The notes below the pieces were generated by a model. The model searched no databases and was not told the origin of the DNA. It saw nothing but the letters and a program-made list of their open reading frames with translations. DNA of 64,000 nucleotides from positions 24,285,657 through 24,349,656 of the forward strand of contig CM119263.1 in assembly GCA_051294375.1 (NCBI GenBank), in the 5' to 3' direction. Numbering within the stretch: the stretch's first letter is position 1; each line of letters starts with the position of its first letter. The translations under genes and the position numbers were made by a program. Positions 5,133 through 45,441 of the stretch are shown here, piece after piece. The stretch is from Paraspadella gotoi (lineage: Eukaryota > Animalia > Chaetognatha).

Positions 5133-8100
5133 TTACTTTTCGGAACCATGGAATGGTTTCTCACGATACGAATCGAAATGAGGCCAGGTCTCCAACTCGA
5201 AAGATCTTCCGTCTCCACCGCGATCGACGTCCGATCTTCCGCTAAAGAATCGCGAACGGCGAGGAGACGATTTAGATCCGGGATCGTCGCGGGAAGGTTG
5301 GTCTTCGACATCGTCTCTGTGCCTGGCATTGTCGTCCCTCGAATGGTCGTTGACGACGTCGCCATAGTCCAAATGAAGATCGTCGGATTTGCGCCATCTG
5401 GAACTTCTCTGAACGGGTCGGGCGGAATGCCAATTCCGCGAGTGAGAATGCCGATGACGAACGTGAGTCGTCAGGCGCGCGCGGCGGTGCATCCACGGAT
5501 TGATCAAGGGGCCATTTGCGTTAAGGCTAGGTGTCATTGATCTGCATGTTCGAGGGAAAAATCAATAAGATTGCGATATTCCCTATTTCACAAATCAGGA
5601 GTCAATAAATGTTAACTAGACTAACCGGGCGTTGACGAGATAACCCCGGGCACGGCCCCTTGAGAGACCCCCAGAAAGCGATCTAGGTCGAGAAGACGGT
5701 CGTGAAAATTCTTCCCCAAATAACGTGCGCCTGATGGGACCGCTCTGCGAGGGCGGTTTCCGGGGTTTGGAGAAGAGAGGTGTCGAGGTTCGCGACTGGC
5801 CCGAAGAATCAGTGGCGCCGGAAGCGACCGAAGAGCCCACGCTTGAACCTTGACGCGAAATGAGATTTTTGATCGGCGCCGAAGTGGTCTTTGGTGAAGA
5901 AGGGGGCGTGGGATAAACGGGACGGCTGATGGTCATTGCCGAACCGGGGAGGGATCCAGTGCTCTTGTTGGCGAGCATTCGAACGAGCAGCTGCTTCGTA
6001 AAGGGAACCGTCTTAACGGACGATCGGACCGTACTCTTTGAACGTGACCTGCTAAAAGGGGAAATTGCTGAATAAACCGTCGATTCGGAAAAAAAATCTT
6101 AAAAGTATAGTGATCTCGCCAGACGTTACCATCAAAGAAAATAAATTAAAAAAAAAAAGAATGATTGATGCGATAACGAATTATTGATATAATAGTAATT
6201 GATTGATTTAATAATAATTGATTAATGTAATAGTAATTGATTGATGTGATAACCAATTATTGATACGATAATAAACAATTATTGATGTGATGATAACCAA
6301 ATATTGATGCGATGATAACCAAATATTGATGCGATGATAACTAATAATTGATGCGATGATAACCAATGATCGATGCGATGATAACCAAATAATTGATTCG
6401 ATGAGTCATTCATTGACGCGATGAATCATTCATCGTAAATAAATCATGCTTATTTGAATGAGAGAGAAAGAGAAAAAAAAAGATAGAGAGAAGCTAGATA
6501 GCTACTGCAAAGCTGAAGTCGTTTTTAAACAAATCAGAAGAAGCAGCGATGGAAAAAAAAGAGCGATATATAATTATAAGAGAGAAAATTTGCGATGGTA
6601 AAGAAGCGTGACGACGACAACGGTCACAAAGAAGCAGAGGCGAACCAAAATCACAATCAAACAACAAACGCCCATTGTTCCAAACCTTGATTTCCTCGGC
6701 GTCGCCTTAACAGGTTCGATAGGCGGCGGTTGGTTGTGGAGATCTTTCTTGGTGGGCGCGGCCACACTTTCCCCCACGCCCGGAGGACCCTGTAGAAGGC
6801 TTATAATAAATACCAAAAAAAAAGTATAAGGATCATCGAAATCGTCTAAGAAATTTTTGGACCCATGACAAACTTTGATACTCAAACCATATTTGATACA
6901 GGAAAACTAAGTTTTATACATAACAAACTAGGCTTAATATATAAAAAATAAGTAAATAAATAAATCAAAATTAAATTAATAAATAAAATTAAATAAAAGA
7001 AATGAATTGTATGAATGAATTAAATTCAAATTTAATTTTAAAAAAATGAAAGAATTGAGATAAATAAATTGAGAGATAAAAAAAGATAAGTAAAAGATAG
7101 TAAAATGATAACATGCGAGTCTGCGATGCTTAAAATCATAAGTTTAAAGCTGATATTTTTAAAATTAAATAAAAAGAAAGAGAAAAAGAAAGAAAGAAAT
7201 AGAAAAAAAAAGAGGAAGAAAGAAAGAAATAGAAAAAGAAAGAAAGAAAGAAAGAAACTTTTATTGAAAGAACAGACCTTTTCGCCAGGAATATTAATGA
7301 TTTTGACCGAGCTATTCCGATTCGTAATCTTCTTCGCCAATTTTCGCGACAACTTTGCCCGATTGGCTTTACGTTTTCTCTCCCGCTCCCGTCGTCGAGC
7401 CCATTCTCTTTCCTGAGTCAATAATTTATAGATTAATTGATTCATTTGCATACTTCACCCTTCAATAGCATTTTTTTAATCGTAATTCATGCCAATCTAT
7501 GAACCTTCTGTCTTTGTTCCTCCTTTCGCTTGAGCCTCTCCTTCCGCCTCAACTCTTCGGCTTCACGGGCTTCGGGTTTGAAGGGAAGACCCGATTCATC
7601 GTCATCGGGATCATCGATGTCTGGCGTGATTATAAATTTCTACAAGAAAAATTAAATATTATGAGGTTTTTTTCATCAGGCTTTCCCTACGGTTAACAGA
7701 AAGTAAATAAGAGTACCTGGACCAGAGCACCCTTGCCAAACTGTTCGAGAGGCATTTTGGAGAAGATGTAGTGATTGTTGAGCCACTCCTTAAACCCCAC
7801 GTGCGGGATTCGTAGGCATCGAAGGCCGTCTTGATGGAGCTCGTATCCGAGGCGGCATTCGCATTTAAATCCGCCTTAGTACAAAATTATTTTTTTTGAT
7901 TCTGTTCAGATTTAATAAAAGATCCGCTATATTTTTTCGACGAAAAGAATTACCGATGGTATTGACGCAGTCGTGGTCGCACGCGTTTCTCCTGACGGCG
8001 CATTCGTCATACTGCTTGACGAACGAAGCGGAAAATCCTCCTTTCTGAACTGTCCCGTCGGAGACGAATTTGACCCAAAGTTTGTTTTTGGAGGATTTTA

Positions 8101-11100
8101 TCGTCTCGGGGGATTTATACCTGATTTAGTAAAGACAAAAACTTTAGAAATATAACAGTTTGGTTTGAATCAATTCAATTCATGGTCGAGGTTGTTGTCG
8201 TGGTAATTGTCCCAGATTCAGATGCATAGGCATAGGTAAAACAAACCCGCAGTAACGTCCAATAATTGGAGAATCTTCCGTGTATCCGTCTCGAACTTCA
8301 AGATAGTCGTAAACGCAACCGTCATGTTTTTCGATCTGCAAATTTTTTTCAACTTGAACGAAAAAAAGTCAACATATAAAAAAAGGAAATACAAACCTCA
8401 AAAGATTCAAATGACAAAGCGACGGCGAACCCATCTGGCACAGAAATCCTCCATACGCAGCCTTTATTCGGTCTATACTCATCCGGGAAGTTGGGACTGC
8501 TCAGTTTTCCGCCGTCCTCTCCTATTTAAACCAAGAAAATTACACATCATCCAAATTGTTTGAACTTCAACGGAAAGAGTCTACCTTTAGACAGGATATC
8601 CCCGCCACAAACGGCTTCGTATGTTGCGCGGAAACCGGCACCTCGATTTCCGTACGACGATCTATATTCCACCCAGAGTCTCTCCCCAGAAGATTTGAGA
8701 AGGGGCGGCAACCGGCCGCTGCCGCAAAATCGACCGAGAAGCGGCGCCCTTTGATTGATGAAATTCATTAATATCCGAGTAAGGAAGAATAATCCAGATT
8801 TCGGCTCACCTATACCAATGACCGTCCCTCACTTCAAGGTAATTAGTGTAGCAATTTCGCGTCAATTCTATGTTCATGTTTGTAATATTGAGAATAAGCT
8901 TTTCGCCGTGCGTGGCAGTGATGCGCCATTGACAAAATCTTTCATTTCCGGTATCTGGCTTAGGATAACCGGGGGAAACAACTGCTCCAGAAGGATCCTA
9001 TGATTAAACAATTATCGTTAAAGCTCAACTTAACATAAATTAACAATTTTATCACTTGTCACCTGCATAGTTTTGCCACAAGGCGGACAGCGATACAGCT
9101 TTTTAGCCTGGCGCACGTCACCTTGGCTCAACCACACCCTTTGGCCTATTTCCGGTCTTTTTTGGCCATCTGGAACTCTAAAATATGAGAGATTATTGAA
9201 AAAGAACAATTCATATAATGACGGGATCGCGGTTCCTGACCTTGGTAGAATCGTGTCGAGGTAAGTACCACGAGAAAACGTATTTCTCGCGTAATGCATT
9301 ATGCTACCGTAATCATACGGCTCCCCCAAGGAATACACTTCACTACTTCCCAACACATTAAAATTGTATTCCTGTGAACAAAAAAATATTTTTGAAAAAT
9401 CTTAAAAATATAGTGATCTCGCCAGTCGTTACTATTAAAGAAAATTAATTTAAAAAATCCGGAAAAAAAACGAATGATTGATGCGATAACAAATTATTAA
9501 TGTAATAGTAATTGATTGATGTAAATAATAATTATTAATGTAATAACTATTAATTATATAATTAATATATAATTAATATAATTAAAAGAGAGAACATATA
9601 ATTAAAACGTAATTCGTAATAGTTTTTATAGAAAATTATTTTGTAAATTAAACAAACAAATGCGTGTAGCAATATGAAACATGGTTCTAAAGGATCTTGA
9701 TGATGAGAAGCCATATCTAATTTTTTAACTTCCTATGATATCACACTTTTATAAAAATTAATTTAGGAACAACAGTTTTTGTTTGGGACGAACAACGATT
9801 TTATTTAACAGGCTAGTCAAACATGTTTCAGCTCTCAGATTAAAGCCTTCATCATCAGTGTTTGAAAATCAAACAAATTTTTACCTATCCCTCACTACTT
9901 ATTCTCCTTTTCACATTTCATTTTTAATTAACCAGTTGTAAGTTATTATCATTATCAATTTAATGTTAAGTTTACCTAAATTATTTATTCACCATATATC
10001 TTTGTTGTACATTAACAAATATAATTATTTTCTCTATCTCTCTCCCCTTCAACTTTTCACCTTCAAATTTAATCTATTTTCTTTTTCCCTGTCATTACCT
10101 TCACCTGTCCTTATATCTGACCAGTGACCACTGTCCTTTTGATTCTTTGTTGGAAGCTCTCTTTCCCCCCAAGATAAATGTCAAAGAGAAAATTTGTTTG
10201 AATTTCAAACACTGATGAAGGCTTTAATTTGAGAGCCTAAACATGTCTGACTAAACCTGTTAAATAAAAAAATATATAATTGTTTTGTAAATAAAACAAA
10301 CAAATGCATGTAGTAATATAAAACATGAGAATCTAAAAAATCTTGCTGATTAAAAGCGATATCTAAATTTTTAGCTTTTTATGGTTACACACTTTTACAA
10401 GTTCCAATTATAAAAAAGCGTGACGACGACGACAACGATGGTCACAAAGAAGCATCACTTAAACTAAATCAATATGGTGGACTAAAATCCACCAACCGTT
10501 CATCAGCGGCCATTGGTGCCGGAAGCAAGTCATTCGCCTCCCAACCCAAAGGTCCGGGGTTCTAGCCCGGTGGTCGTCTGGCAGTTAAGAGGGACGGGGC
10601 GCTTAACCCGCCTGTAACACGGTGTTACAGCCTGATCCGAAGCTCAGGGACTGCTTATATTGAACGGTTCTGTCACTAACTCATAACAATAATTACTGTC
10701 TCTTCATCAAGAATTAAAAATTGACGAACCTGGTTTGGAATAATGTTTTTCCGAATAATAATGACGTGTCGATCTCTGCAAAAAAAAATCGACTATTGTT
10801 ATCAAGATAATCCTCTCCGCTCCCGAACCAACCTGTCTGGACGAGTGTGTTCGTGCCAAAACCCGATGACGTGACCAAGTTCGTGGACGACTATTCCGAA
10901 CTTGTCGCAATTGTTGCCGATGGAGATGGCTTGGGGTCCATTGCCCCTCTTTCCCACAAAAGAGCAGCAACCGCAAGGACGGACGGTAAAGATGATGTAG
11001 TCCTTCTCAGTCGTACGTTCCACGAAGGAAATGCAAGTGTAGTTTTCCCAATGTCTCATGGCCTGAAACAAAAATTATTAAAATTTTAAACTTTAAACTA

Positions 11101-12125: not shown

Positions 12126-15100
12126 TTAAACGGAATGAGCACGGAAGAGTTTTCGAAATTTTTGAGCCGGGTAAGTAAAGCCCTGAACAGTTATTTTAAG
12201 ATCAACAAACAATTTTTCTAATTTTACGGAATTCAAAACATCCATTTCCAACCTATGAGAAAAATTAGGTACATATATACTCTTTATAGTTTTTTAAATC
12301 ATATATAAATTTGTGGAAAAGATAATAATTACTTTCTTTCTGGAGACATAGAGAATTCGTCAGGTCCTTGTGTACCCGAACAACCGCCACAATGGAGGTG
12401 ACTTGAATATCCTATTAGATCAAGATTTAGCAGAGAAAAAGTAATTAACAGCCATATCTTCTAACCTGGATGAACCATCCATTCACATGATAAGACTTCG
12501 TTTTGACCAAATGTTCTTTCAACGTTTTTAATTGCCTTTTTAATGTGAGGCAAAGTCATATCATACCTAAAGTAACAAATGACAACAAAATTTTTATCGG
12601 CTTTCAAAACAAATAAAAGTTTAAAAAACAATTTTGGATCCATCCACAACATTTTTAAAATTATCATATTTTTAAAAAATATCTTTTTATAATTTAATTC
12701 TCTGAAAAGGTAAACAATTTACCGACTCAACTAGGAGTTGACCGACAGACGGACAAAGTAAATTATAGAATATAGAGTCAGGCCTAAAAATTTTTACCCT
12801 GTCAAAGATAACCCAATAAAGGCGCGTGTAAAATAAATTTTCTGTTGAGTAAAGATGATTTTTGCATATTTGGAATCTTGACAAACCGCAAGATAAAAAA
12901 CAAGTCTTTCTCGGGGTTCTATCCAATCCGCAAATCGGATATCAAATTCGTAGGGTAAACGGGTTTCGACGATAAGGTTCTTTTTCAAACAGGACGCAAA
13001 AACCTTCGGATTTAAAAATATTCTTATATGTCATCACAACCAAATCAATGAAAAGAATTTAATCACCCGTGCAATAGGTGGAATCACATGAACGTGCTGG
13101 TGACCATCCACAAAAGGAGGACTAATAACATAAATTTATTCCAACATCAAATAAGTCATGCAAAGACCGTAAGAGAAGAAGATTTACCTGTGACCAAAAA
13201 AATGCCGGTAAATAGCTATTTGCGCCTCAAGTTCAACTTCCACCTCCTTGAAGTCGATGCAATTTCGTTTTAGAGCCTCGCGAAAGCCATGTTTCCCCAA
13301 AAAAACTCCGGTTTTTGCATTAAGAAGAGATTGCACAATGTGAGTTGCTAAAACAAAATTAGATATTAGGTATACTTCTTCAGGGTGTATATATAAAAAT
13401 ATTAAAATTATAGAGATCACACCAAACGTTACTCTCAAAGAAAATTAATAAAAAAATCCCCCCCCAAAAAACGAATGATTGATGCAATAACCAATTATTG
13501 TTGCGATAACGAATTATTAATGCATGACAAATTATTGATATGATGATACCAAATTATTGATGTGATGATGACAAATTATTGATATGATGATACCAAATTA
13601 TTGATGTGATGACGGAATGATAAGGAAAATGTTTTAAAAAACAAGTTTGAGCAAACAATGTCGGATCTGCCCACGATCATTATCGGTAATTAATTAATTA
13701 ATAAATAAATAATTATTTAATTAATTAATAATCAATTTATTCAAGTTAATTATTTAATTAATTATGCTAATTAATTTGATCCAAAATGTTTTTTTGATTA
13801 ATTAACTGATTAATTAATTGATTAATTAATTGACTAATTGATTAATTAACTAATTAATTATTTGATTAATTAATACATCTTGTATTTACATTTAAAATAA
13901 AAATAAAAAGAAGCATAATCAATTAATGAAACAGGTTCTTTTTTTTTCCATTTAAACTCATTTCCACTCAAACGATTCCATCGAAACTTGATTTCCAGTT
14001 TAATCACACACTTTTCTACCCAAATACAAAATTTCAAGTCAATCGCCCCATCCACTCATGAATAATTAGTGTTCAAATAGTGAAATATATTTTTTTTTCC
14101 ATTTAAACTTATTTCCACTCGGACGATTCCATCGAAACTTCATATCCAGCTCAATCACACACTTCCCTACCCACACACAAAATTTCATTCCAATCCATCC
14201 ATCCAATCACGAGTAATTGGTGTTTTTTGCTAAGGTGGGATGGACGGACGGATGGACAGATGGACATCGTTTTTTTTTACATAATTTATCATAATTCGAT
14301 GTTCTGATATGATTGAGGGGGCGGACCGACAAAGTGAATTATAGAGTCGGGATCTGCTGAAAGCAGATCCGACTAAAAATACAATAAATCAATAAAACGA
14401 AATGAAATGAATGAAATAAAATAAATGAAATGAATCGCATAAAATGAATCAAATGAAACGAATCAAATGAAATGAATCAAATGAAATGGTTGTTTGAAAA
14501 CAAAACAATACAAAGAGTTTAAAAAAATTTCTGAGCGGGCAATGGAATTTCTAAAAAATTCGTTTGGCGATTTTATTTTCTTTCTTATATAATAATACTA
14601 AGGATCTCCACTTTATTTTAAAACTAACTGGTACAAAATTAAATCTTAAAATGAAATACTACTCCACAAAATTATTTGCAATTTACAAAATAATTTAGAT
14701 AATTTAGATTTGGACAACAATTGGGTTAACAGAAAACAAGCTTGAGCAAACAATGTCGGTTCTGCCCACGATTAGTAGCGGTAATTAATTAATTAATACA
14801 AACTATATAAACTAAAATAATAATTTAATTAATAAATTATTTTATCCGTAATGTTTGTTTTTAGGTATTTTCGTCACTGACCACGACAAAAGCAACGACG
14901 ACGACGATGGCGACGACAATATTGCCAATAAAGATTGACTTGATTGATTGTTTAATTGATTAAATAATTAATTAATTTATAAATAAATTGATTGAATAAT
15001 TAAAAAAAGTAAACCTCGCGCAGAAACTTGTGGCAGCTTACCACTTATCGGTCGGCCTTCGGTCAAATTAAAGTGTAAACCAACAGGGATTTGATTCTCT

Positions 15101-15736
15101 TTCGACAACCTGACGGCGTGAACTGCAAATCGTCCATTCATTAACATCGTTGTGCGACTTATTTTTCCTTTTTTGAAAAGTTCTGATAAAGGAAATGAAA
15201 ACGATAAAGTTTTTCTTTGGACATTAGTGACTGGGACAAAATAGGTTATTTTGTAGTCGGGCATTGTATAAGTTCACCCCGCCTATAAGCATGACACCTT
15301 CAGTCGTGACCCCGTGGCTCATTGAGCAATATCATCAGCTCATATTGGAGGGAAAATATTGCTGACCGTCCATGAGAATCCGATTTCAATCCACGAGAAT
15401 CCACGATTTCCATTCGCGAGATTCTGCTTCCAACACTAATGACCATTAGGTACCGGGATCGATCCTTAATAGTACCTACGGAAAGCGTGAGGAAGACTGT
15501 AAACCGCCCTGGAGGCCTGGAAAACACCTAAGCCTGGTTCCAATCCCAGGACCTCTTCCATTGCTGCTAGGGGGGTTAAAGAAGTTGCTTCAGCCCACTA
15601 AGCACCTTTTCCACAATTTATTTGGTGATTATATAATTTGTACTAATTTTACAAAATTAATTCATAGCTCACCAACTATTCCAAGATTTCTTCGTGGACA
15701 GTATCCAAAATCATCGGCGGTTATCATCAACTTCAT
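12126..15736 (-). CDS. YDJC: YdjC/ChbG-like carbohydrate deacetylase (multi-exon)
   Basis: Motifs MKLMITADDFGYCPRRN, VGLHFNLTEGRP, DGHQHVH and EWMVHPG. Confidence 0.85.
13895..14380. mobile_element. HINE/DINE-1-like element (family B) in a YDJC intron
   Basis: ~140-bp internal tandem duplication, GGAC/GGAT microsatellite, terminal palindrome AGTCGGGATCTGC-TGAAA-GCAGATCCGACT followed by an A-run. Confidence 0.5.
15260..15605 (-). mobile_element. Putative tRNA-derived SINE in the first YDJC intron
   Basis: GC-richer island. The minus strand begins with A-box-like TAGTGGGCTGAAGC and B-box-like GGTCCTGGGATTGGAACC, then several hairpins. Single copy in the window. Confidence 0.4.
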
Positions 15737-15951: not shown

Positions 15952-18400
15952 TTACCGGAGCCACTCCGACGCTTTTGCCAACCAGATAACCACAGAGTCG
16001 TACGCGATTTGTAACGTTTCTACCGAGACTGCCCACCATTTGGCTATGGACTCATTCTCCTCAAGCGTTGATTTGACGTTCGTCGAGTAGGTGATGACCA
16101 CGCTCCAGACTTCAGTCAAGTGATCTATCACCGCCGTCATAAACAGTCGCGCATAATGTGTTCCCGTGTTCCAGGTACCCGACAGAGACTTCTCCGCTGA
16201 CTCCCTCCAACCAGGGGCTTGTCCGTCCAAAAACGCCATGCCCGACTCCCAAGCTCCAGCAACTTGTCGAAAGAAAACCAAAATCAGTTGCCCAGCAAAA
16301 AGGAGCGTAGCGTAGACGTATTCTTGAAACAATAGCGCGTAAGGGGCGATCAGGTCCACGCTTCGAGAGTAAACGAATGGAAGGTCGACGCTGACCCATT
16401 CGCGGATGACGCGCTGCAAGTGGGAGGCATTGGCGAGAACTTGATCAAGTTGGGAAGAAAATCCAGCATCGCGAAGGAAGCGAAATGTCATCGACTCTTC
16501 CGCATCGCCCTTGGCAACGATCACGATATCCAATGCAAAGAAGCTGAGCATTAGAAAAAGGAATCGCATCAGCCACTTTTTCCCGCGGCCAACAGCGGAA
16601 CTTTCCTCAATGGCGGAAACCGTTCGTTCGTGGAGAGGTCGGCAGTTTTCTTCGCAAAGGCGAAGCCCAACCGGGTCTTGCTTAGAGCCAGCACCTCTCA
16701 ATTCTTCATTAGTAACTTCAAAAGATTTGACAGTCTCTTTCAAGCGCGCCTTGTCGATTTTCTCGGTCGCCTTCGACCCCTGGCACTCGACGAGGTGCTT
16801 AAGAAGAGCTCCGCTCTGGGGCAAGTGTTTGGTGTAAAGTTCCCTCCACACGGAGAACGATTTGGGATCTTGTACCAAGCAGGTTGTCAATGAGGAAAGA
16901 TATGCTCCTTTAAGAGGGCCGTTCGTATCGGCGCGGCTTAAGTAGGACGGAAAATAAGTATGGAGCGAAGCTGACGGATCTGCCCCATAGGCCATTGACT
17001 TGAGTTTGGGTAAAATAGATTTGCTTAATTTTCTCATTTCCACCGAAGTGATGCAAGTTGGGTTCGACTGATTGAAGAAATCCAGAAGTGTGAAGTATCC
17101 CGTCAATCCCAGAGACTTGGTTCCCATATGAAGATGCTTCGAATGAATGTTGAGGATCAGATCGAAATGCGCCAGTATGAAAGGTGCCAAATGACGCGTT
17201 GAGATCGAGGGAAACATAATCTCGAAAAAGACACGTATTCCCGTCGCCAAATCTTTGTGGCCAGACTGGCCTATAACCCACAAAACTGCCAGACATCGCA
17301 AAGGTCGGCCTTGATTTTCGCACAAAATTTCTGAAAACTTTGCTAAATCCCCCAGAACGTTGGTCGGCGACATGTAGGCCAATAGCTGAGCGGTTATCTG
17401 ATAGCCGTAAATGGACAAGCCCTTGCTAAGATCCGTCACCATGGACTGGACACAGTGGTGGAAAAAAATTTCTAAAACGTTGTTGGTAGTGCTCTGCAAA
17501 GTCTTGACGACGAGCTGCTTGATGCCTGGTGGAAGCTCGGACGACGGAAAGTCGGCCCTCTCGTTTGGATGCGTCGGGTCCTCGAGAGGAACCTCCTCAA
17601 AATGAACGTTGAGAAAACTTGCCATATCTTTAAGCCAAAGCAAGGTCGAATTGGGAAAAGCCCGTTTGGATTGGCTCAAAGCCTTCTCCAAACTCTCGGG
17701 CGTCAGACTCTTCATCGCGGCGGCCAAAGTCGGAGGTTTAGTCGGTTTCCCGGATTTCTCGCTTTTCTTCTTTCCTCCGCCACCATCTGGCCGAGGGCTC
17801 GCTTTCGAAGAGACGCTGAAATCCAAACGAAAAGAATTCATTACCACCTCGAAAATATAAACTTACTCGTGTGGCGAATCCTAAATTCGGCTCGCGTATA
17901 GCTTGGTGAAACTCAGCTCGTCCTATTGGCTTGGACATCTAAGTACTCATTCATCAACCGTGAGTTCCGGGTTCGATTCCCTCACGGTCACGCTGGTTAA
18001 GTGTGATGGTGTCGGCATAAACACGCCAGTGACACTGCAGGTCCAAAGACCTGAGCGCCTGCTATCGGGAGATTCTCAATCTCCGTGCATCACACCTGTC
18101 TCTCTAGTTACTAGTTACTTTTAAGATTCGTTTCAAAGCTTTGTATAACACATTAACACATTATGGTGAAACTTACGCGTCATCGCCACTTCCTTGATTT
18201 TTTGCCCTTTTGTCCTTGACGTTAGAAAAGGCCTCGAACATAGTGGGCGTCTCTTTGACGGGTTGGAGGTGAACCAAGTCTTCAATCTTGGTCATGGTCT
18301 CCAGTGCCGGAATAGCGCGCTTTCTGTCAGCCTTAGGCAAACTACCACTTTTTTTCGCTCGTGAACTGACAACAGTCTCCCATCGACCCACGTTTGCCAT
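15952..18400 (-). CDS. TMEM214: Transmembrane protein 214 (2 exons; intron about 17816-18176)
   Basis: N-terminus MANVGRWETV; motifs LLWLKDMASFLN, VLWVIGQSG, LHTYFPSYLSRA and WRELYTKHLPQS. Confidence 0.85.
17870..18123 (+). mobile_element. SINE-like element with tRNA-like T-arm and twister ribozyme, in the TMEM214 intron
   Basis: B-box GGGTTCGATTCCC inside stem ACCGTGAG/CTCACGGT, then the twister fold, hairpin GGAGATT-CTC-AATCTCC and a (TAGTTAC)2 tail. Confidence 0.55.
17991..18057 (+). ncRNA. Type-P5 twister ribozyme candidate (T2 variant)
   Basis: CGCT GGTTAA GTGT GA TGG TGTCGGCA TAA ACAC GC CAGT-GAC-ACTG CAGG T CCA AA GA CCTG AGCG. Perfect P2 ACAC/GTGT, T1 CCA/TGG, P4 CAGG/CCTG. L4 reads AAGA instead of AAGC. 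Confidence 0.7.
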
Positions 18401-19458: not shown

Positions 19459-21849
19459 TCACCATGACTTTTTTCTCGATTTACGTTTTTTACTTGTCTT
19501 ATCCGTGCTTTTGTTTTTTTTAATCGACAATCTCCTAATGAGAATGATTGAGGTAGGCAAGGTAAGACGACCCGTCGATATTAAGGGATGGTTGTGGTTT
19601 TGCACTCCAAACTTATATGAACCTCCGTTAATGATGCGATGTCGGCTTTGATCATTCACAGTAGTAAAAGATACTAAAAAAAATTCAATCAATTAGTAAT
19701 AGTTGGACGTTTTGGTAATCCTTCTTTACACAATGACAATGTAAAAGAATTTTTAACCATGTTCCCAAATTAAATTATAAAAGACAAGATAAGACGGTCG
19801 TCAGCTGTTACCTGGACAATCATTTTTTAAAGAAAGGCAAATCCAAGACTCGACAACAATATTTTTCCATGCAATTTTTGAAGAAAGAATAAATTCGAAT
19901 CCGTCCAGAACGGCTCTTAAAATAAGAATATTAGATTAATCTAGAAATTATATTTAAGAAGAAAAAAATCCGAACCTGTAATGTAAATTTCCAAGACCAA
20001 CAGCGGACTTTTCAATTGCTTCATTACATATGAATTTGGCAGTTTCTTCCAGCGAAAACTCATAAATAATGGGAATTCCTATTTTTAGTTTACTATCATC
20101 GAAGCGTTTTATCACAGACGACCGGTTTTTACATCGTGTACTTGAATTAAAAATAAGAGACTTTTTATGATTTTCGGAAATTGATCTGCTTTCTACATAG
20201 TCTTTACAAAAATCGGAGGTCGAAAGTCTTACGTCATCACCTTCCTCGCAATCATCACAATTCTCAGTAAAATCCCACGATCCAGAGTCGTCGAGCTCAT
20301 CAGCGAGCACACGAGTTTCCGCGTCAATAGGATAGGCCCCAGCATCAGTAATGCTCAACAAACCTTCGAAAGAAGGACCTTGCAATTTGTTCTCAAACAC
20401 TCGTAATCTGCGAACGCAATTGTCGCACTTCTTGTTATGGGAGCAATCCTGACATGTTTGACCTGAGGACGCAAATCGTGAAATTGACGTGGAAACAATC
20501 TTAGAATTAATAGCGGTACTGTCGGGATAATCTTCCTGAGAAAAACTTTTGTCAATTTTTTTGGATCTGCCAGATTTATGCACCGATCTTTGGCCAAAAG
20601 GTTTAACAACATCCTGGTGTAATTTTAGGTGTTGCTTTTTTTGCTTTAAATTATGAAAGGTTTCTCTTTCACACTGTTTAAAAGGGCACGAATGAATGTC
20701 TTGGATATGCGCTTCTAAGCTTTCTTTAGTAAATAATTTAGAATTTAATTCGTGCTTAACACAAACGACACATTTGTAATCTTTAAGGCTTATATTTTTC
20801 TTTTTTGATAACTGCCCTCCGAGTCCTATATGGATATTAGAGCAGGATAAAACTGAGTTATCTTCAAATCGTTGTTTCGATTTCTGTTGGGATGAAGCAT
20901 CTGTAGTACTTATAGAAGGTGGAGAGGGCACAACAGAATTCTCTTGTGGCGTTGTTAAAAGTTTTTTTGCCGTCACATTTTCTTTCGTGGTTGAAAACCC
21001 TTTATTAAGACTCAAAGAAATACCACCATGCATCCGGTGTTCCAGAACATGAGCACTAGCTTTTGAAAAAAATCCATAACAAATGAGGCACCCATGTACA
21101 AGGTCCAAATGCTTAAAAAACAGGCTTCGCTCGATGATAACCGTACAGAAAAAACAACGGATCTTTGTTGAAGGAAAATTACTAATAAATTTCATAAGAT
21201 TGGATAAAAGAAACTTGCTTTGAGATTCCACATGTTTAGTCCGAATGTGAGAAGGCAAAAAGTCGAACGTATATTCGTTCCTACAGTATGAACATTTGCG
21301 AAGAATGGTGGTTTGAGTATTTTTGTTACACGAAGAATGAAAAATTTTTTTATGGCCAGTTATATCAGCGAAGAAACCGCAGCAATGTCGACAGATATGT
21401 TTAATCCAGTAATGTTTTCTCATAGCGACGGAGTCAATTTTTTCTTCACAAAACGAGCATAAAAGAATTTTGGGCGTGACAAATAGCTTCGGAAAGTTTT
21501 CGATCGCTCTTTCAATGGAAGATCTTTCAAAATGGCCATTGTCCAAATTTGGATTGCCTTGTTCGGATACTCTTTCAGTTAAATCACACGAAGAGCATCG
21601 AAGAAGACCACAATTACGGCAAAACTGATCCTCTGTTGATTCAGAAGTAGTTACGAGTTCCGATACTTTCACGTTATTTTTTATGTTAATAAAATCGGTT
21701 TCTCTTGATACTTCTTCACTTGATCTAGAAACAAGTAAGGACTTATCTTCCTCAAACGTTTGCCCGCTGATTTTCTCGAGAATCGAAGTTCGGGATAGAT
21801 TTTCGTCTATACTTTTAATCAAAACGTTTTTCCCGCAATTTTGTTCCAT
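19459..21849 (-). CDS. Cys/His-rich C2H2-type zinc-finger protein, family not recognised
   Basis: 631-codon ORF with repeated CxxC-x11/12-HxxxxH units (e.g. CSYC...HIRTKH, CFFC...HLDLVH). Probable extra 3' exons to about 19459. Confidence 0.6.
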
Positions 21850-22295
21850 TTTTTTTACGTTTTTTAAATTGAATGATTATCACATTTCGTACTTCCTACA
21901 AAAAAATAGTTGTGAAACTAATAAATAAAAAATGGCAAAAGTTGTTGCAACTATTTCAACAAACAGATTAAAATTTCACATTTTAAGGATATAGCAATAC
22001 CTTTATTATTGCCAATTATTAAAAAAACATTAAAAAAAAGCATGTGACAATACAAAATAAGTATACTTTAATATATTTTTAGAGAATGTTATCACGTCGT
22101 TTTAGAAAATGAAAATGGTTTTGAGTACACAGAATTACTTACGTCATCAAAAAATATGAATGTAATTCAATAATATGACCAATGAATGAATACACGAACG
22201 TTGTTGGCAGTTTGATGGCTCCAAAAGGGCAATTGTTCTCTAAGCAGAAGAGTTTCGAAAATGTTTAGCAGTAATCGATATCGATTTCAGCATTT

Positions 22296-25200
22296 TTATT
22301 TATAAATCGTCTCCGGATTTCCAGATTTTAATGCAGAATATCTTGCCGCCGTAAAAAGGTAATCGCTGAGTCTATTAAGAAAAATAAGCGGATCTTTTTC
22401 CATTTCACCGTTGGAAACCAACGAAACGACACGACGCTCGGCTCGCCTATTAATTTAAGAAAATAACTGACATATTTAGCCAAATAAATTATTAAATTAA
22501 AAAACTTACCTACAAATAGTTCGGGCAACGTGTAACGAAGCTGCAATTTTACCACCAGAAGGAAGAATAAAATTTGTCAGCGGCGGTAATTCCAAAGTCA
22601 TCGCGTCGATCCACTCCTCTAATCTTATAACTGTTGTTTTTTCAAAATCGCCAACATGCTAAAGACAACAACTTTATTAAGTTCGTTTTCAATGAAAGTC
22701 GTACGGTACTGCTAATTTAAATATTAAAACGTAACGGAAAATTTGTTGTCATAAAGCATACAGGCGACCCAAAATTTATTACTTTTTCTTATTCAGAGTT
22801 CTGGAATTCAAAATTGTTTGTTCAATACTTGTCCTGTACTAAATCGATTTGTACTACGACTTTTTTATTTAGTAGCATATCCAAACATTGAAGGATCTAA
22901 ATGTTTATTGATACATAGGCAATGAAAAAAAATTTATAAATATAGTTATTGCAAACAATTGCTTACTTTTTTGTGGGCATCTTTGCGAGATGACTTAGGT
23001 GTTGCGACATGACTAGCAACGTCCTGGAGCGTGCATTGAATAAACTGCAGTTGATGGGAAAGATCGATTGCGTCGTTTGACGTGAAAATAGAGTTTTCGA
23101 GGCAATGTTCTCTCCCTGTCAAGCAAGAGAATAAAAGAGAAAAAAAGATCAGGGGACAAAGTCAAGCAACTACGTCCACATGCCTAATTTTACGAGTTCA
23201 ATCCTAATTAGCCTGGCAAGCTTCATATGGGACGGGTTGGAATATCTTTACAAAACCTTGGGAATATTACCTTGGTACCAAAATAAGAGATTTGAGATAG
23301 AACGATTTTTTGTCTACAAAGCCAAAAGGTTCGTAATAAAAATCGGGTTACTCCAATATGCAAATGAGATTAACGTTTCACAGTAATATTTTAATTTAAT
23401 AAAAACTTATTAATCTTATATAAAAAATTAAATAAATATAATAAAATCGAATTTAAAAGCTAGTATATATAGTTTGATCAGCAGATAGGATAAAAAAAAT
23501 AATATTAAGCACTAAAAAGCACATGAAAATACTGTTGCAATGAAGGTTTTTGTAACTTAATCTTGAAAGATAGTAAGACAGTGAACAATGACAAAAAGCT
23601 ATTGAGACAGAGAGAGATACAGTTCAATCAGTTTTTTTGTTTTTCTCATAACCATTTTGGTACTGATTACTTGAATCATATCAAAATACTTTAATAGCAA
23701 GGATTCGTTAGAAGCTTTCCTTTCCAGCGCTCTCTTCAATTAACTTCATGATTGTTTTTGTGATTCTCTCCGTCTTTGTCATAGTTATTATACATCACTA
23801 GGAAAAGAGTGAGCATTATCATTTTATTTGAGCTAATAATATATGACAGTAAAAAAATTAATATTATTTAAGAATTTTAATTTTGGGGCCACTTGGAGGT
23901 AATTAAAAAAGCGAGGGTAAATCTTTCATTTGTCATGGGTTAGGTTCAGTTTTATCAAATTCTAACTTTTATTACTTTACACTATTATAAAGCCTATATC
24001 TAAAAATAATACTTTTGGGTCAATCTGTGTCTTTCTCTCTTTCTCTCTCTCCCTTTCTCTCTCTTAGTCTCTCTCTATATTTCGTATTTGTTTTCAGAAA
24101 AAACTTTTATTCTTGTTAAATCTTTTACCATGATAATAACTTAAAAAATAATTCAAAATATTTAGCAAAAATATACTTTTTGTACTTGCAAATACAATTA
24201 TGTCAAAATTATATTGTGGGAATAAATAAACGAGTTTGTGAAAGAGTCTTGATTGAATGCTTACAAGGAACCGCTCTGTCATTATCTTGTACACTACGGC
24301 GCAAAGAAAACCACTTTTTCATATCGAAAAAAACCGTATTGGATGGCTGAATTTTACAAAGATATAGATACATAAAATAAAGCTTATTAAATGATAAAGC
24401 GATTGGTACAAGTCCCAATAAAATCGAGCAAAGTGTTCGAAAGTTAGAGGACGACAAAGTCGATTGGTACAAAAATCGTCAAAAAGAGTCAATGACTTTT
24501 CCCTATTAAAAGTGTTTATAATATGAAATTGGTACAACCAATATAAAAATTATCCATTCATTTAATAAATAAGCTATCTTTCTCCTGACTTTGGATAGGC
24601 TTTGTGGTTTAAGGCCTCCATCACAGCATCACTCTTACAAGATAATGACATGTCTCGTTTATTCACTCCCAGAGTACCTGGTTTCCCTATCAATGAAGTG
24701 GTATAATGTTTCAAAGAATGTTTCAATTGTATGAAATGACCACTCCCTTAAGTATTAGATCGGGGAATACTATGAAATTGGTACAACCAATATAAAAATT
24801 ATCCATTCATTTAATAAATAAGCTATCTTGTCCCTGACTTTGGACAGGCTTTGGTGGTTTAAGGCCTCCATCACACTTACAAGATAATAACATAGCAGGT
24901 TTCTGCAAGCTTTCAATCAAGACTCTCTCACAGTCTTATTTATTCACTCCCAGTGAACCTGGCTTTCCTATCAATGAAGTGGTATAATATTTCAAAGAAT
25001 GTTTAAATTGTATGAAAAGGACCACTATATTATACTCTACTCAGCATCAAAATACAAGGAGCTGAATTTTATGAAATTGGTACAACCAATATAAAAATTA
25101 TCCATTCATTTAATAAAAAAGCTATCTTGCCCTCACTTTGGATAGGCTTTGGTGGTTTAAGGCCTCCATCACTCTTACAAGATAATGACATAGCAGGTCC

Positions 25201-26542
25201 CTGTAACCTTTCATTCAAGACTCTCTCACAGTCTCGTTTATTCATTCCAAAGTACCTGGCTTCCCTATTAATAAGAATTTTATTTCATATCAATAATGAT
25301 AATAATAAAATGGTAAAATGTTTCTAAGAATGTTTCAATGGTATTGTAATAATATAATTTTCTTGCACCAATTGATATATTTTTTTAAAATATTTTTTTA
25401 AAATTAAAAAAGAAATAGTTGTTTTACCAATTTGATAATGAAAATGAAAAAAAAATCCAATTTGTAAAATTTTGATAGCCATGTTAATATTATTAGATTA
25501 ACTTTTTTAAATATTTTTTATTATACAGAACTATCAAAACAAATTAAAACATTTTATTAATTGTTTTTTAAAAAAATAGTTATTATTAAAATGTTTATGC
25601 TCTCTTTTGCCTTATATTCAACCTTACGATGACGCATTAATCTCATTTGCATATTCGAGTCACTCGATTTTTATTACTAACCTTTTGAGCTTACTTGACC
25701 TACCGGTTCTGATCATATTTTGAAAGTTTTTTGAAAATCTGAATCTAGATTCAGGCACTATCCTAATTCAATTTTTTTTAAATAAAAACGCAGAGAGAGA
25801 GAGAGAGAGAAAGAGAGAGCGAGAAAGAGAAGCCAAATCGTTTTCAGACGAATCAGCAGAAGCAGCAGGAAAAAACTTTTTCATTATAAAATAAACTGGT
25901 AAGCAGAAGCAGCCTCTGAAGAAAAAAAAAGAGAGGAAAAAAAAAAGAGAGAGAGAGAGAGAGGAAGAGAGAGGGAGAGAGAGAGAGAGAGGAAGAGAGA
26001 GAGAGAGGAAGAGAGGAAGAGAGAGAGAGAGAAAGAAGCCAAATCGTTTTCGGACGAATCAGCAGCGACAGCAGCAGAGGCAGCCAGAAAAAAATAAAGT
26101 AATCAAAAGGCAGCAGCAGAAGCAGCAAGAGAAAAGAGAGAAAAAGAAAAAGCCCCTGCAGAGCCAGCTGCAGACTCGTTTTTTCTCTCGATAAATCAGC
26201 CTGGGAAAAAGAGAGAGAGAGAGAGAGCTACATATAATTAAAAGAGAAAAGAGAGAGAGAAGGAGACATACCTAATCCGATCCAGGAAGAAAGTTCATCA
26301 ACACTTCCCAAAGCTTCAAAAACATTATCGTCCTTTTTTCTTCGTTCCCCAGTGAAGAGACTAGAGTTTCCACCGTCGCCAGTTTTGGTGTAAACTTTCA
26401 TAGATCGAACGTGACTTCGATCGACCGAATAGAATCCAGAATTCAAGTAAATTCCAATAGAAGCTAATGTAGATCGAGGAGACGAGGCAACAGGAAAGCG
26501 TTTAAGAAGTATTCGTGAAAATAAATGCTTAAGAAGAGACAT
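22296..26542 (-). CDS. MMAB: ATP:cob(I)alamin adenosyltransferase (about 3-kb repeat-filled first intron)
   Basis: Exon 1 [42 protein letters not shown]. Later exons [40 protein letters not shown] and [14 protein letters not shown]. Confidence 0.9.
24522..25330. repeat. Three tandem units of about 250-300 bp in the MMAB intron
   Basis: Unit start TATGAAATTGGTACAACCAATATAAAAATTATCC at 24522, 24771 and 25070. An inverted fragment lies at about 24210-24295 and a short copy at about 48109. Confidence 0.8.
25790..26265. repeat. GA/GCA-rich simple and low-complexity repeat
   Basis: (GA)n tracts and a duplicated AGAAGCCAAATCGTTTTC.GACGAATCAGCAG. Confidence 0.8.
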
Positions 26543-28389: not shown

Positions 28390-30941
28390 CTAGTCCTGTG
28401 AGATCATTAAAATCTTTGCAATGGACGCCTTGCTCGACTTTCTCAAGATCATTTTGCGGCATCTACGGTCGACGTAGATGATGTAAAGCGCTAAGAGAAC
28501 TACAAAGCAAACTCCGTAAGCACCAAAGCAGATGCTGACGTCCCAGTCGGTGAATCCTAATACGCCGCCGAACGGCGACGAAGTCGGATTTCGACGCCGC
28601 GTTTGACGCTCGATCGCGCGAAGACGCTGGAACGAACAGCCGGAGTTGAGAAAAAATAATGACAAAAAGATATAAGCACGCTGTGTGGTATACCTCTACG
28701 TCAAGATGACTACCCAGCACCGCGGTCCGAAGCTTTTTCTCGCGGGTCCGTCTTTTTATCTCGGCAATACCACCGGGTCGAAGAACTGGTTTAATTATTT
28801 CTCCCTCGATGCTATTAATTCCCTGGCGTCTTCGGTGCGATTTTGCGTTTCTAGGGCCTGTACGCTCAGTCGGAAATGCGAGCTCGTCCGCCGAAAAAAC
28901 GGAAATGTTACTGTAATAATTTTTTAAAAAAGTTTTGGCGTTCAAGTAGTGCCATGCGTCGCGGTTGCCTTCGATGCGACAAGATGGACAGGTGTCGAAA
29001 TCCGGAAATTGGATTTTAGGCGCAAGCGGATCTTCACTTTCGTCTCCTACAAAGAAAACAAGGCATTGCGCCGCAATAAATTACTGCTTATGAGATCGTA
29101 TTACGAGTAATATAATTTATAATTTCAAATCATAATTTAATTTGACCTTATTTAACAAGTATCGACTCATGACTACAATAATAATTTTACTGTTTTGGAT
29201 TCATTTAAAGTAATTGCATTAAATTTTTTTTCAAATAATCCGACCTGCAAGTCGGGCGTTGACTTTGTTGTGAGCTTTCCAAAGCCATAGAATGACGTCG
29301 TCGTAAGATTGCACGCTGTCGTCAAGATCTTCTTTTATCATCTCCTCGAAGTGAGACGCACATTCTCTGCAATGATATACATTATAGTATATATAGTTTA
29401 GTTAAAAGATATGCCAATGAAAGTAGAAAGCTTTGACAAGTCGCTCACCTACAACTGAAAAAGCTTTGGATGTAGCCAGCCATAACATCCAGCACCTCCC
29501 TCCCCTCCGCTTTTTCTTCGTCGACCCGAGCGTTGGCGTCGGCGGCGAGAACGCTAAGAACGTGAAACAATGTCCAAGTTGCACAAGGATAACCGCGAAG
29601 CGTCTCGCGACTACCGCGGCACCCGACCCATTCCTCGACGAATAATGGGTCTTCGCGGGTCATTCGCGATCTTATGCGCTTGAGCCATTCACGGTTAGAC
29701 ACGGAGCGGGACCCCACAGAACGGAGCCACACGTTCAAGTTGTTTAAATAAGCCATGGTGTCCGTGTCACCGGGAAAATATTTGACAAGTAATGCCACGA
29801 ATTCTTTGGCGGACTTCAAGTCTTCGCCTTCTAATATGTTCAGCATTCCAATCTCCTGCCGAAGAGCGTATCTGATCATCTTTAACAAATCAGACATGAA
29901 AACGCCCTTTGGAACTGGAGGTGCCGGCGAAGTAACAAAAGATTTGATCGGAAGTTGCGGTACGTGAGTCAAGCCGACCTGAGACCACGGCAACAACTCT
30001 TTCAAACGGGCCTGAAGCGCAGAGGAATCTGCCGTGTCGACGTTAAGAGGTACGACGAGAACCTTTTTATTCGACGACCAAAACGATTTGGCGGGATTAG
30101 GCAATAGCAAATGGGCGGAAGGCACTTTACCAGAATTAAATTCGAGCAGAAACCTAGGATTTTCTTTTTGGAAAACGTCCACGTCGACGCCCAACGTCCG
30201 TATCTTTGGGTCGCTGGAAATATCGAGCGTCGTCCGCTTGGCCGAGTACGAAGACGCGGAGTGGAAGACGAGAACGACGGCGCCGATCCCTTCCTCGCTG
30301 AAAACATTGTTGATCGAGTCTAGTGTCACATCCTTCTCTAATTCGCGGAAAACCGGCCATGCGCTAGGCCGTTGCGAACCGAGATGCATTTCCACAAACT
30401 CAAGCATCTTTCTCTCGTAGAGTTCGACGATTCGCTCGGGGTCCGCGTCACTCACTTTGACTTCGAGACCCTTTTGACCCGGAAGCGACATGGCGGGAAA
30501 AAGCTTCACCGTCGGGAATCCTCGAATTTCGAACGAGGTGCAAACGGGAAAGTTTTCCTCCGAGGCGCAGTTAATCGCGGCGACTCTAATCACGTTCGAC
30601 CACTGAGCGTTAGAAGCATAATAGGCGTTGAAATCGTCATTCAAAAATGAAAAAAAAAGAACCCAAGGTACCTGAAACGTCTGTGACGCCAGTCTCCTCC
30701 ACAGGGGCGCGAAATGGACGCAGTGTCCGCACCAACTTGAGTAAAACTCCACGATGAATGCTGTGTCTTTTTGGTATAAAGTCGAGTTGATGTTGAAATA
30801 CTCTAATTGCGTGAGGGTGTCGTTTCCGTTGTAAAGAGACACCGCTTTTCGATGATGCGGAGCGGCCCATACTTTTCGAAGGGCAGAAAAGACCACGACG
30901 GCAAGAAAACATTTGACAAGAATCCGGATCATTTTTTTCAT
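28390..30941 (-). CDS. QSOX: Quiescin sulfhydryl oxidase, paralog A
   Basis: Thioredoxin motif [14 protein letters not shown]...[31 protein letters not shown] and a C-terminal TM helix. Confidence 0.9.
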
Positions 30942-31092
30942 TATTACTTCTTTATCCTAATAAGGTTACGAATTTCTCTTCAGAATCATTTCTTATTTCC
31001 GTCCCTACTTTCGGTTGAGAAAAAAGGCAAGAAAAGCAAAACAAAGATTTTTGAGTATTATCGAGTTCATAAAGACACGAAATAAGTAAAAT

Positions 31093-32898: not shown

Positions 32899-33506
32899 CC
32901 TCGACCCTAATTTTTTATTCTCGAATTTCGGCTGTCAATGTCATAAGGAAGGATGCGATAGTAATTTACATCGGAAATTTTTTTCGCAGTTTATTCGAAC
33001 TGACACGAACGAAAAAGACCGAGTATCTTGTATGATCGAGACTTGTGAGTTTCCCTAATTTACTTTCATCACATTTTCAAGTTTTTGTTTTAAAAGTAAA
33101 AAAATAAGTGTCGAATAATTTCGAAGAGAAGGATGGACATTAAACAAAGTTCTGGAAAGAAAATCATTCATATTGTGACAAACTCATTTACGTTTAAGGA
33201 CCTAAACGATATATTTAATTTAATTAGCAGATAGTTTTTTTAAGATATTTTTCAAACTGGCAAAACTGAGAATTTACAAGCTGAAAAAAAAAAAGGACTA
33301 GTTTATCACATGTATAAATAAATGAATCAGGCAATTTGACATTGTAATCTGTAACACATTTTTTTTTATTTAGCGAAGAACGTTAAGTAAAACCGTGAAA
33401 AATCTTAACGCCGTATGAGCCTTCGAAAAGAGAAGTCTTTGAAAAATCTTCGCTTTCGAGGATAAAAATCACGAATTTGATTACTTTTACACTAAGTCGA
33501 AATGGT

Positions 33507-41125: not shown

Positions 41126-45441
<4,316 letters not shown>

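Follow-up and report, generated by a model that had tools for sequence, protein, structure and literature searches.

A tRNA-like segment and a putative type-P5 twister ribozyme within candidate long terminal repeats of miniature retroelements in the chaetognath Paraspadella gotoi

The DNA analysed here, hereafter the window, is a stretch of 64,000 nucleotides (nt) from contig CM119263.1 (positions 24,285,657 to 24,349,656; GenBank assembly GCA_051294375.1) of the chaetognath Paraspadella gotoi. It is animal genomic DNA with short introns, and its gene content includes TMEM214 (29-35% identical to named relatives and up to 68% to others), two QSOX-like genes, and PDZ/WW, Kazal and LRR exons. 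In an intron of what we take, from an astacin motif in its translation, to be a tolloid/BMP1-like gene lies a 234-bp repeat (10473-10706, + strand), which we call family A; it is antisense to the gene and 24 nt from a small exon recognised by translation (10730-10775, - strand). The repeat combines a tRNA-like segment (10506-10577) with a predicted type-P5 twister ribozyme fold (10581-10654), and three further repeat families of the window (B, C and E) carry the same fold. A preliminary description of the locus had noticed the tRNA-like and twister parts of family A, and the sequence bears out the features it placed there. Here we argue, at a probability of roughly 0.65, that the family A copy is the solo long terminal repeat (LTR) of a terminal-repeat retrotransposon in miniature (TRIM), that is, a small non-coding LTR retrotransposon, whose RNA would be cut by a twister in each LTR, circularized, and copied by a host Gypsy-type element.

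The ends of the family were read from contigs of four of 12 listed sequencing runs (X5, X7, X9 and X10) aligned to 10420-10780; such contigs cannot show RNA ends, and their summed depth, which is not a copy number, is read only as very high. At the edge of the repeat, X7 goes from a depth of 326 to one of about 4 million, and X5 from 18 to 0.4-0.85 million; the step at the ends amounts to three to four orders of magnitude in three of the four runs. Contigs diverge into unrelated flanks at 10473 and 10706 (208/238 in X7, 135/162 in X5 and 40/61 in X9). The preliminary description had supposed a multi-copy element, and the hundreds of distinct flanks show that the region is not single-copy. Most aligned contigs are at least 95% identical (X7, X5), which makes the family a young one. 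The repeat has sharp ends with TA...CA termini, opens with a 7-bp hairpin in the predicted fold (10475-10494, + strand), similar to one that opens the LTRs of family E, and is bounded in the window by a 4-bp target duplication, TCAA (10469-10472 and 10707-10710). The preliminary description had proposed a search for duplications and termini, and had itself missed both the duplication and the two ends. In the flanks of other copies an AT-rich 4-mer is favoured on both sides. In some copies, moreover, contigs of X7, X9 and X10 run past 10706 into a TGG motif that has 13/14 nt in common with the tRNA-Trp primer site known from Gypsy-32_NVi and Helenus-2_SyJa. Because of these sharp ends, the many flanks, the 4-bp duplication and the primer-binding-site-like continuation, we consider the sequence of family A very probably that of an LTR.

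Self-BLAST found no second family A copy within the 64-kb window, a window search found the primer-site motif nowhere in it, and scans of prokaryote genomes and viral contigs did not turn up the family A core. Four metagenome loci matched the junction of LTR end and primer site; all are GC-rich with no further similarity, and they were taken as chance. A contig joint from 10706 to 10473 was considered as an LTR-internal-LTR structure and dropped, as its depth is single-copy and it may be unique DNA between two solo copies. Identity as a miniature inverted-repeat transposable element was rejected for want of terminal inverted repeats. Two short low-depth contigs of X10, which derives from another organism, match the 3' end of family A (10646-10707), one of them with the primer-site-like motif, and may represent a relative or carry-over. 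The element-to-intron depth ratio of X9 resembles that of DNA runs, and X9 is RNA only by guess, hence no conclusion on expression is drawn from it.

The tRNA-like segment (+ strand) is likely an internal RNA polymerase III (Pol III) promoter. Its A-box-like (10514-10525) and B-box-like (10558-10568) motifs lie about 45 nt apart, which is the canonical spacing of tRNA genes, and its acceptor and T-arm form a stack of 12 bp in which two common variants turn a G.U into a G-C pair. The window copy has an A at 10524 in the A box, where about 98-100% of the family depth has G. The tRNA-like domain is weaker than the preliminary description had it, and the tRNA-Gly label that came with it is weak: it relies on a CCC in the loop of an anticodon stem with 3/5 pairs, and ARAGORN calls tRNA-Gly(CCC) at 10506-10578 only at a relaxed threshold that gives 36 calls in the window. 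The motifs GGTTC and YGG are present in families A and B, and TRGCY in B and E. TTTT is absent from A and E, as it is from 1324/2000 A shuffles and 1557/2000 E shuffles, and its absence was rejected as uninformative on Pol III transcription. Both domains of family A are enclosed by a predicted helix (arms 10494-10502 and 10661-10669, + strand), also proposed in the preliminary description, which is a perfect 9 bp, is reached in 11/5000 shuffles and has a pair probability of 0.97. The counterpart in family B has 10/11 pairs with a bulge; its longest perfect run, 5 bp, is ordinary (1268/2000 shuffles), and the helix is missing from the single-sequence fold. Family E has no clear enclosing helix.

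The twister fold of family A (+ strand) starts 3 nt past the tRNA-like segment. Reportedly, following Roth et al. in 2014, the core of a type-P5 twister is ordered P2, GA, T1, P1, UAA, P2, T2, an optional P3, P4 and an 8-nt L4. In family A, the stems are P5 (10581-85/10650-54), P2 (10589-92/10607-09), P3 (8 bp, 10612-19/10623-30) and P4 (5 bp with an 8-nt loop, 10631-35/10644-48), and the pseudoknots are T1 (10595-97/10637-39), with 3/3 Watson-Crick pairs, and T2 (10610-11/10642-43), with 2/2. The catalytic G, G10593-A10594 and the YAA at the cut site are intact, and from its position in the fold the cleavage site is predicted between U and A at 10604/10605. P2 consists of two Watson-Crick pairs plus a C.A mismatch, or of three G-C pairs around a bulged A10590. 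The preliminary description had ascribed the two-pair P2 to this copy; the count is right, but the state is family-wide, with no variant or indel of at least 5% at 10589-10592 or 10607-10609. A similar mismatch of the third P2 pair occurs in family C, which has compensatory changes elsewhere. The family also keeps the core that the preliminary description had made a test of its idea: no variant of at least 5% falls on P2, the catalytic GA, the cut site or T2 in the run contigs. The core variants that do reach 5% are a change in the P3 loop, one at the loop-closing P3 pair, and C>T/G>A changes at CpG sites, the last at 5-13% in X7 and at most 3% in X5; in X5, the cleaner run, the main variants either sit in a loop or in the tail, or replace a G.U by a G-C pair.

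As controls, two pattern scans of viral contigs yielded 191 loci with 93 distinct complete P5 cores; an initial phage scan of 20 loci, which lacked a complete twister, was excluded from this set. Of 20 phage control loci submitted to Rfam, 18 were called Twister-P5. A covariance model built from 48 of the 93 phage cores gives 10589-10648 as its best match in the 64 kb (24.6 bits, rough E 0.0013), and a second model from 10 chosen P3-bearing phage cores ranks family A second (19.2 bits, E 0.0094). The twister fold and its predicted cut lie where the preliminary description had placed them. A twister descriptor written post hoc matches the window once and 1000 shuffles 6 times (2 with a P2 of at least 2 and a P4 of at least 4 pairs). 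Core order and identity are shared with the type-P5 twisters of RF02684. The elements differ from these in their P1 (a palindrome of 6-8 nt, compared with hairpins of 14-25 nt), in their closed P5 stem and, in family A, in an A-U-closed L4 and a bulged P2, and they lie below Rfam detection; family A scores below the gathering threshold of RF02684, whose model has a long P1 and no P3. From its sequence, family A is a twister-class fold, and not a member of RF02684 as modelled. Rfam scans gave no hammerhead match. In the tests of natural twisters described (PMC11662667; PMC5113685), defects of P1, P2 and most of P4 are tolerated and those of pseudoknots or catalytic residues are not, and about 94% of the natural twisters tested are reported to cut despite helix defects (PMC11662667). 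With these data as a guide, the twister of family A is probably active. Separately, among the viral contigs, L143, L144, L187, L193, L197, L203 and L214 each carry a cluster of two to five P5 twisters, at intervals of a few hundred bases, and many of these are followed by a ribosome-binding-site-like motif.

The phage-built models and descriptors led to the three further families. Family E includes a complete element of 747 nt (63016-63762, - strand, from self-alignment), a TRIM layout under 1 kb, made up of an LTR of 254 nt (63762-63509), an internal region of 237 nt (63508-63272) and a second LTR of 256 nt (63271-63016). Its LTRs are identical at 250/257 columns (97%), it is flanked by the target duplication ATAT, and its non-coding internal region opens with a primer-site-like TGG motif, similar to that of family A, to which no tRNA was matched. 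A twister is predicted in both LTRs, with cuts at 63615/63614 and 63123/63122, which would delimit a unit of 492 nt. Alignment and descriptor further identify a solo LTR of family E with a 4-bp duplication, ATAG, and a twister core (1365-1608, - strand; predicted cut 1471/1470), and a 3'-truncated, decayed LTR whose twister core is recognisable (42340-42540, + strand). Target duplications are of 4 bp in both A and E, within the fixed 4-6 bp that define a TRIM. Part of the internal region of the complete element (63372-63469) consists of a 31-nt unit present about three times and a CT run.

Family B (17870-18110, + strand, from the models, its 3' end being approximate) is a high-copy repeat with a sharp TG start in the run contigs, a canonical A box and B box (17970) and a P5 twister (18001-18053) with a predicted cut at 18018/18019 and an 8-nt palindromic P1. 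The family contigs keep one T2 pair and a stretch of P3 that are missing from the window copy. The spacing from B box to GA is 35 nt in both A and B, and three of the four positions of the family B target duplication match. One family B contig of X5 has the same terminal letters as family E. In X11 and X12, which are from other organisms, no contigs match family B, which is not proof of absence. Diverged family B heads (17870-18034) also occur in two long contigs of X9, of 1374 nt (depth 1053) and 1823 nt (depth 339). One of these skips the 5' half of the twister, and the two contigs may represent abundant transcripts of the host in which a copy is embedded.

Family C (24518-25272, - strand, from self-comparison and descriptor) consists of three tandem units of 250-300 nt, all of which have a P5 twister core, with the GA at 25170, 24872 and 24622; T2 is changed on both sides, and two of the three cores have a P4 mismatch. 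An inverted unit fragment without a twister core lies at 24217-24291 (+ strand), and part of it is about 76% like family A just downstream of the twister. An isolated 45-nt unit end with the terminal hairpin is found at 48107-48151. All four such unit ends are followed by TA, so family C may not be an LTR element.

Comparison of the four families shows covariation in their predicted twister fold. T1 reads CGG/CCG, TGG/CCA or CCG/CGG, the last, fully swapped version being that of family E, T2 is G-C or A-U, and P2 to P5 differ in sequence yet pair. When the descriptor is loosened, it picks up 6 loci in the window, compared with 22 matches in 400 shuffles. A weak twister-like string at 15440-15550 (+ strand; E 1.2-2.3), with a B-box-like motif and a short stem ahead of it, could be a decayed fifth family or due to chance; its part 15484-15550, the fourth-ranked model match (E 1.2), is left out of the twister counts. 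The 5' ends of A and E align in a way reached by 1/2000 shuffles, for a segment picked after inspection, and similarity over whole LTRs is borderline for A-B and for B-E (2/500 shuffles each). Kinship of A and E is suggested by layout and 5' ends.

So what could be the role of P1 in these twisters? In family A it is a self-complementary segment of 6 nt (10598-10603, + strand) with a predicted duplex energy of -8.3 kcal/mol and a hairpin energy of 0. In all four families P1 is a full palindrome of 6-8 nt, in four different sequences, whereas only 3 of the 93 phage controls, with a P1 of 14-25 nt, are fully self-complementary. In none of the families does P1 fold alone as a hairpin, and duplexes between two copies are predicted at -8.3 to -11 kcal/mol. 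Hammerheads with a short palindromic stem III are described as cutting as dimers (PMC6765202), and a transcript with two LTRs would supply both of the twister copies that pairing through P1 needs. By this model, two-copy cleavage through the palindromic P1 is a possibility that we hold tentatively, at somewhat less than even odds. A more far-reaching version, which is more doubtful still, would be that of a diversified group of twister-based LTR retrozymes in this animal, driven by a tRNA-type Pol III promoter, in which the twisters are obligate pairs: the copies of the 5' and 3' LTR would swap halves, only a complete transcript with two LTRs would be cut, and the swapped core would hold the ends for ligation into a circle.

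How would such an element multiply? We infer transcription, cutting, ligation and the helper element alike. Pol III would initiate in the 5' LTR and read through to the 3' LTR, after which the twisters of both LTRs would cut, possibly having paired via their palindromic P1. The first of these cuts would take the head off the transcript and the second would set its end, so that what is left is a unit-length RNA (492 nt for family E) that keeps the promoter of the 3' LTR. Since a P5 twister is cut mid-molecule, the ends of the released unit could still pair through P2, P5 and T1 and be held together by these, and in family A by the 9-bp enclosing helix as well. A host ligase would then join the 5'-OH and cyclic-phosphate ends into a circle; ligases of the RtcB type are described as joining such ends in vitro for animal retrozymes (PMC7229834). 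Reverse transcription primed by tRNA and running round the circle would produce solo-LTR, full or tandem complementary DNAs, to be inserted by an LTR integrase. It is the lack of a terminal repeat in the unit that led plant retrozymes to be modelled as circles, round which a borrowed reverse transcriptase would run to make solo, full or multimeric complementary DNAs (PMC4918200), and by this analogy circular RNA intermediates are slightly favoured here. The preliminary description had pointed to a paradox, namely that cleavage would part the promoter from the body, and had suggested tandem or circular intermediates. In the model this suggestion would hold: cuts in both LTRs would release a unit containing the second LTR's promoter, and the paradox of the lost promoter would be removed.

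We must however take into account that several observations weigh against this interpretation. The run contigs show solo copies of family A and the start of an internal region but no full-length element, no polypurine tract was seen for family A, and that of family E is at best a short G run. The termini are TA...CA in A and TG...TA in E, not TG...CA. Family C lacks a clear tRNA-like head and family E a clear B box; ARAGORN at default settings and Rfam call no tRNA in family A, and Rfam calls none in B. Similarity of A and E over whole LTRs is not significant (56/500 shuffles). Both twister descriptors were tuned after the sequences had been seen, and the core in the 3' LTR of the sole complete E copy has a damaged L4 loop. 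For the 492-nt unit, folding predicts only moderate stability (z -1.67 as a linear molecule; reached by 1/40 shuffles as a circle).

Some of these doubts concern the ribozyme itself. Family A might be an ordinary Helenus-like TRIM that has inherited a twister fold, inactive in A, and spreads through uncut linear RNA and normal strand transfer. Its L4 is closed by A-U, a closure with which none of the 60 phage loci fetched for it gave a complete fold (the comparison for G-C closure being the 93 distinct complete cores from the 191 loci), at the position described as the least tolerant in P4 (PMC11662667); P2 is imperfect, P1 has no hairpin, and Rfam scans give no twister match at the gathering threshold or at E up to 10. 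Helenus elements, moreover, spread with no reported ribozyme (PMC10886601). This alternative is nevertheless rather unlikely, given catalytic residues and both pseudoknots intact throughout family A, pairing kept by double changes between four families, and the share of natural twisters that cut in spite of helix defects. Alternatively, the twister may be active as a single copy with no circle being formed, the cut defining RNA ends or freeing the element from read-through and P1 acting as a minimal hairpin. P1 is described as dispensable in the twisters tested (PMC5113685; PMC11662667), so that a single copy, with a stub of 1-2 bp, may cut anyway, and end formation is the role of the twisters found 5' in Perere-3 (PMC8501958). 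A cut at the same site in both LTRs would however remove the terminal repeat needed for strand transfer, which is the circle argument made for retrozymes (PMC4918200), and the central two bases of P1 pair Watson-Crick in all four families, which is needless for a hairpin and found in just 18 of 66 even-length phage controls. We regard single-copy action as a minor possibility.

The preliminary description had set its paradox in the frame of an ordinary short interspersed element (SINE). On a SINE reading, family A would derive from a tRNA, contain a ribozyme and be multiplied from tandem arrays by a long interspersed element. It would share its order of promoter and ribozyme with the Schistosoma hammerhead SINEs (PMC6765202), family C is indeed a tandem array without visible LTR hallmarks, and in its 3' half the twister is similar to those that accompany RTE elements in Schistosoma (PMC8501958). 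Yet a tRNA-derived SINE begins at its tRNA head and ends in a tail, with longer duplications of variable length, whereas family A begins 33 nt before the tRNA-like part and is tailless, with a fixed 3' end, a 4-bp duplication and a primer-site-like motif, while its sister family E has a complete two-LTR element, all of which leaves a SINE very unlikely. The comparison with phage theta ribozymes, also raised in the preliminary description, would make the twister a trimmer of the 3' trailer of a functional tRNA-like RNA. Here too there is something to be said for it, as the 12-bp stack is kept and both common variants strengthen a pair in it, and theta ribozymes likewise are self-cleaving ribozymes just downstream of tRNA-like sequence (PMC10879173). 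They have an HDV-like fold, however, occur in phages without mobile-element hallmarks and, as described, often cut adjacent to real tRNAs (PMC10879173), whereas the cut of family A lies 27 nt past the end of a tRNA-like part with a broken anticodon arm, in a mobile repeat with target duplications. We find trailer processing barely credible.

Returning to the twister-bearing TRIM as the preferred reading, its nearest relatives in design are the plant LTR retrozymes and the Helenus/TRIMp3 elements. As far as described in (PMC4918200), plant LTR retrozymes share the non-coding LTR-internal-LTR build, a ribozyme per LTR, 4-bp duplications, a primer-binding site, solo LTRs and Gypsy-like features. 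They differ in their type III hammerhead, tRNA-Met primer site and 600-800 nt, compared with a P5 twister, a tRNA-Trp-like site and 492 nt in an animal here (PMC4918200). The tRNA-like promoter boxes in the LTR of families A and B also set the elements apart from plant retrozymes, and circles are here predicted only. By analogy, the elements would work like an LTR retrozyme but fail the definition, their ribozyme being a twister and not a hammerhead. With Helenus/TRIMp3, as presented in (PMC10886601), they share the TRIM size (below 1 kb in family E), tRNA-like A-box and B-box motifs within the LTR, target duplications of 4 bp in an animal host and the tRNA-Trp site (that of Helenus-2_SyJa). 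No ribozyme is reported there, and here the termini are other than TG...CA and the polypurine tract is at best a short G run (PMC10886601). Ten exact twister-loop terms of 7-8 nt gave no twister context in the displayed passages of the Helenus consensus file, a search that was not exhaustive and that inexact cases could escape (PMC10886601).

Metazoan non-LTR retrozymes and Schistosoma hammerhead SINEs are, as described, likewise short animal repeats with ribozyme-cut unit RNAs, some with ribozymes active only as dimers (PMC7229834, PMC6765202, PMC7761336), and in the Schistosoma SINEs a Pol III promoter precedes the ribozyme (PMC6765202). They differ in being hammerheads without LTRs, primer site or 4-bp duplications (PMC7229834, PMC6765202, PMC7761336). 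The T-variant twisters of Perere-3 RTE elements share a retroelement host, a weak P1 and a similar sequence from cut site to L4, but are reported to be of the P1 type and to sit 5'-terminally in a non-LTR element whose copy starts at the cut, whereas those described here are P5-permuted and internal to the LTR (PMC8501958). A literature search conducted mostly at the level of titles and abstracts found no report of a twister in an LTR, of an animal LTR retrozyme, or of a palindrome-paired twister.

Family A, family B and the complete E copy are each opposite in strand to the nearest gene, albeit in three cases only, so that their twisters would be absent from host pre-mRNA. The surroundings also contain a dispersed repeat family with internal tandem arrays of 19-23 nt (6091-6640, 9395-9881, 10270-10452, 13389-13612, 35207-36243 and 48735-49752), about 20 nt beyond whose alignable end (10452) family A is inserted; these repeats may resemble Helitron-associated repeats. 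The two QSOX-like sulfhydryl oxidase genes are adjacent (29445-32934, - strand), 30% identical, and have apparent in-frame short introns, and an open frame of 640 codons (19954-21876, - strand) had no match in a Pfam search.

Twister ribozymes are widespread, yet few of them have been assigned a role, and within retroelements they have been described at the 5' end of RTE elements (PMC8501958). Animal retrozymes, in turn, are described as having no LTRs, primer sites or polypurine tracts (PMC7229834). The elements found here would represent a twister-bearing LTR element of an animal, retrozyme-like in its working and Helenus-TRIM-like in its build, that falls in full under neither definition. 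If this is true, it would give the twister a second role in mobile elements, extend LTR retrozymes to animals, and join two designs that have been described separately, Pol III TRIMs and circular-RNA retrozymes. Obligate pairing, should it exist, would amount to a completeness check on retrotransposon RNA, and would explain how many solo LTRs can be harmless inside genes. Finally, as Rfam misses every copy in this window, such elements may be common in genomes that have been left unannotated.

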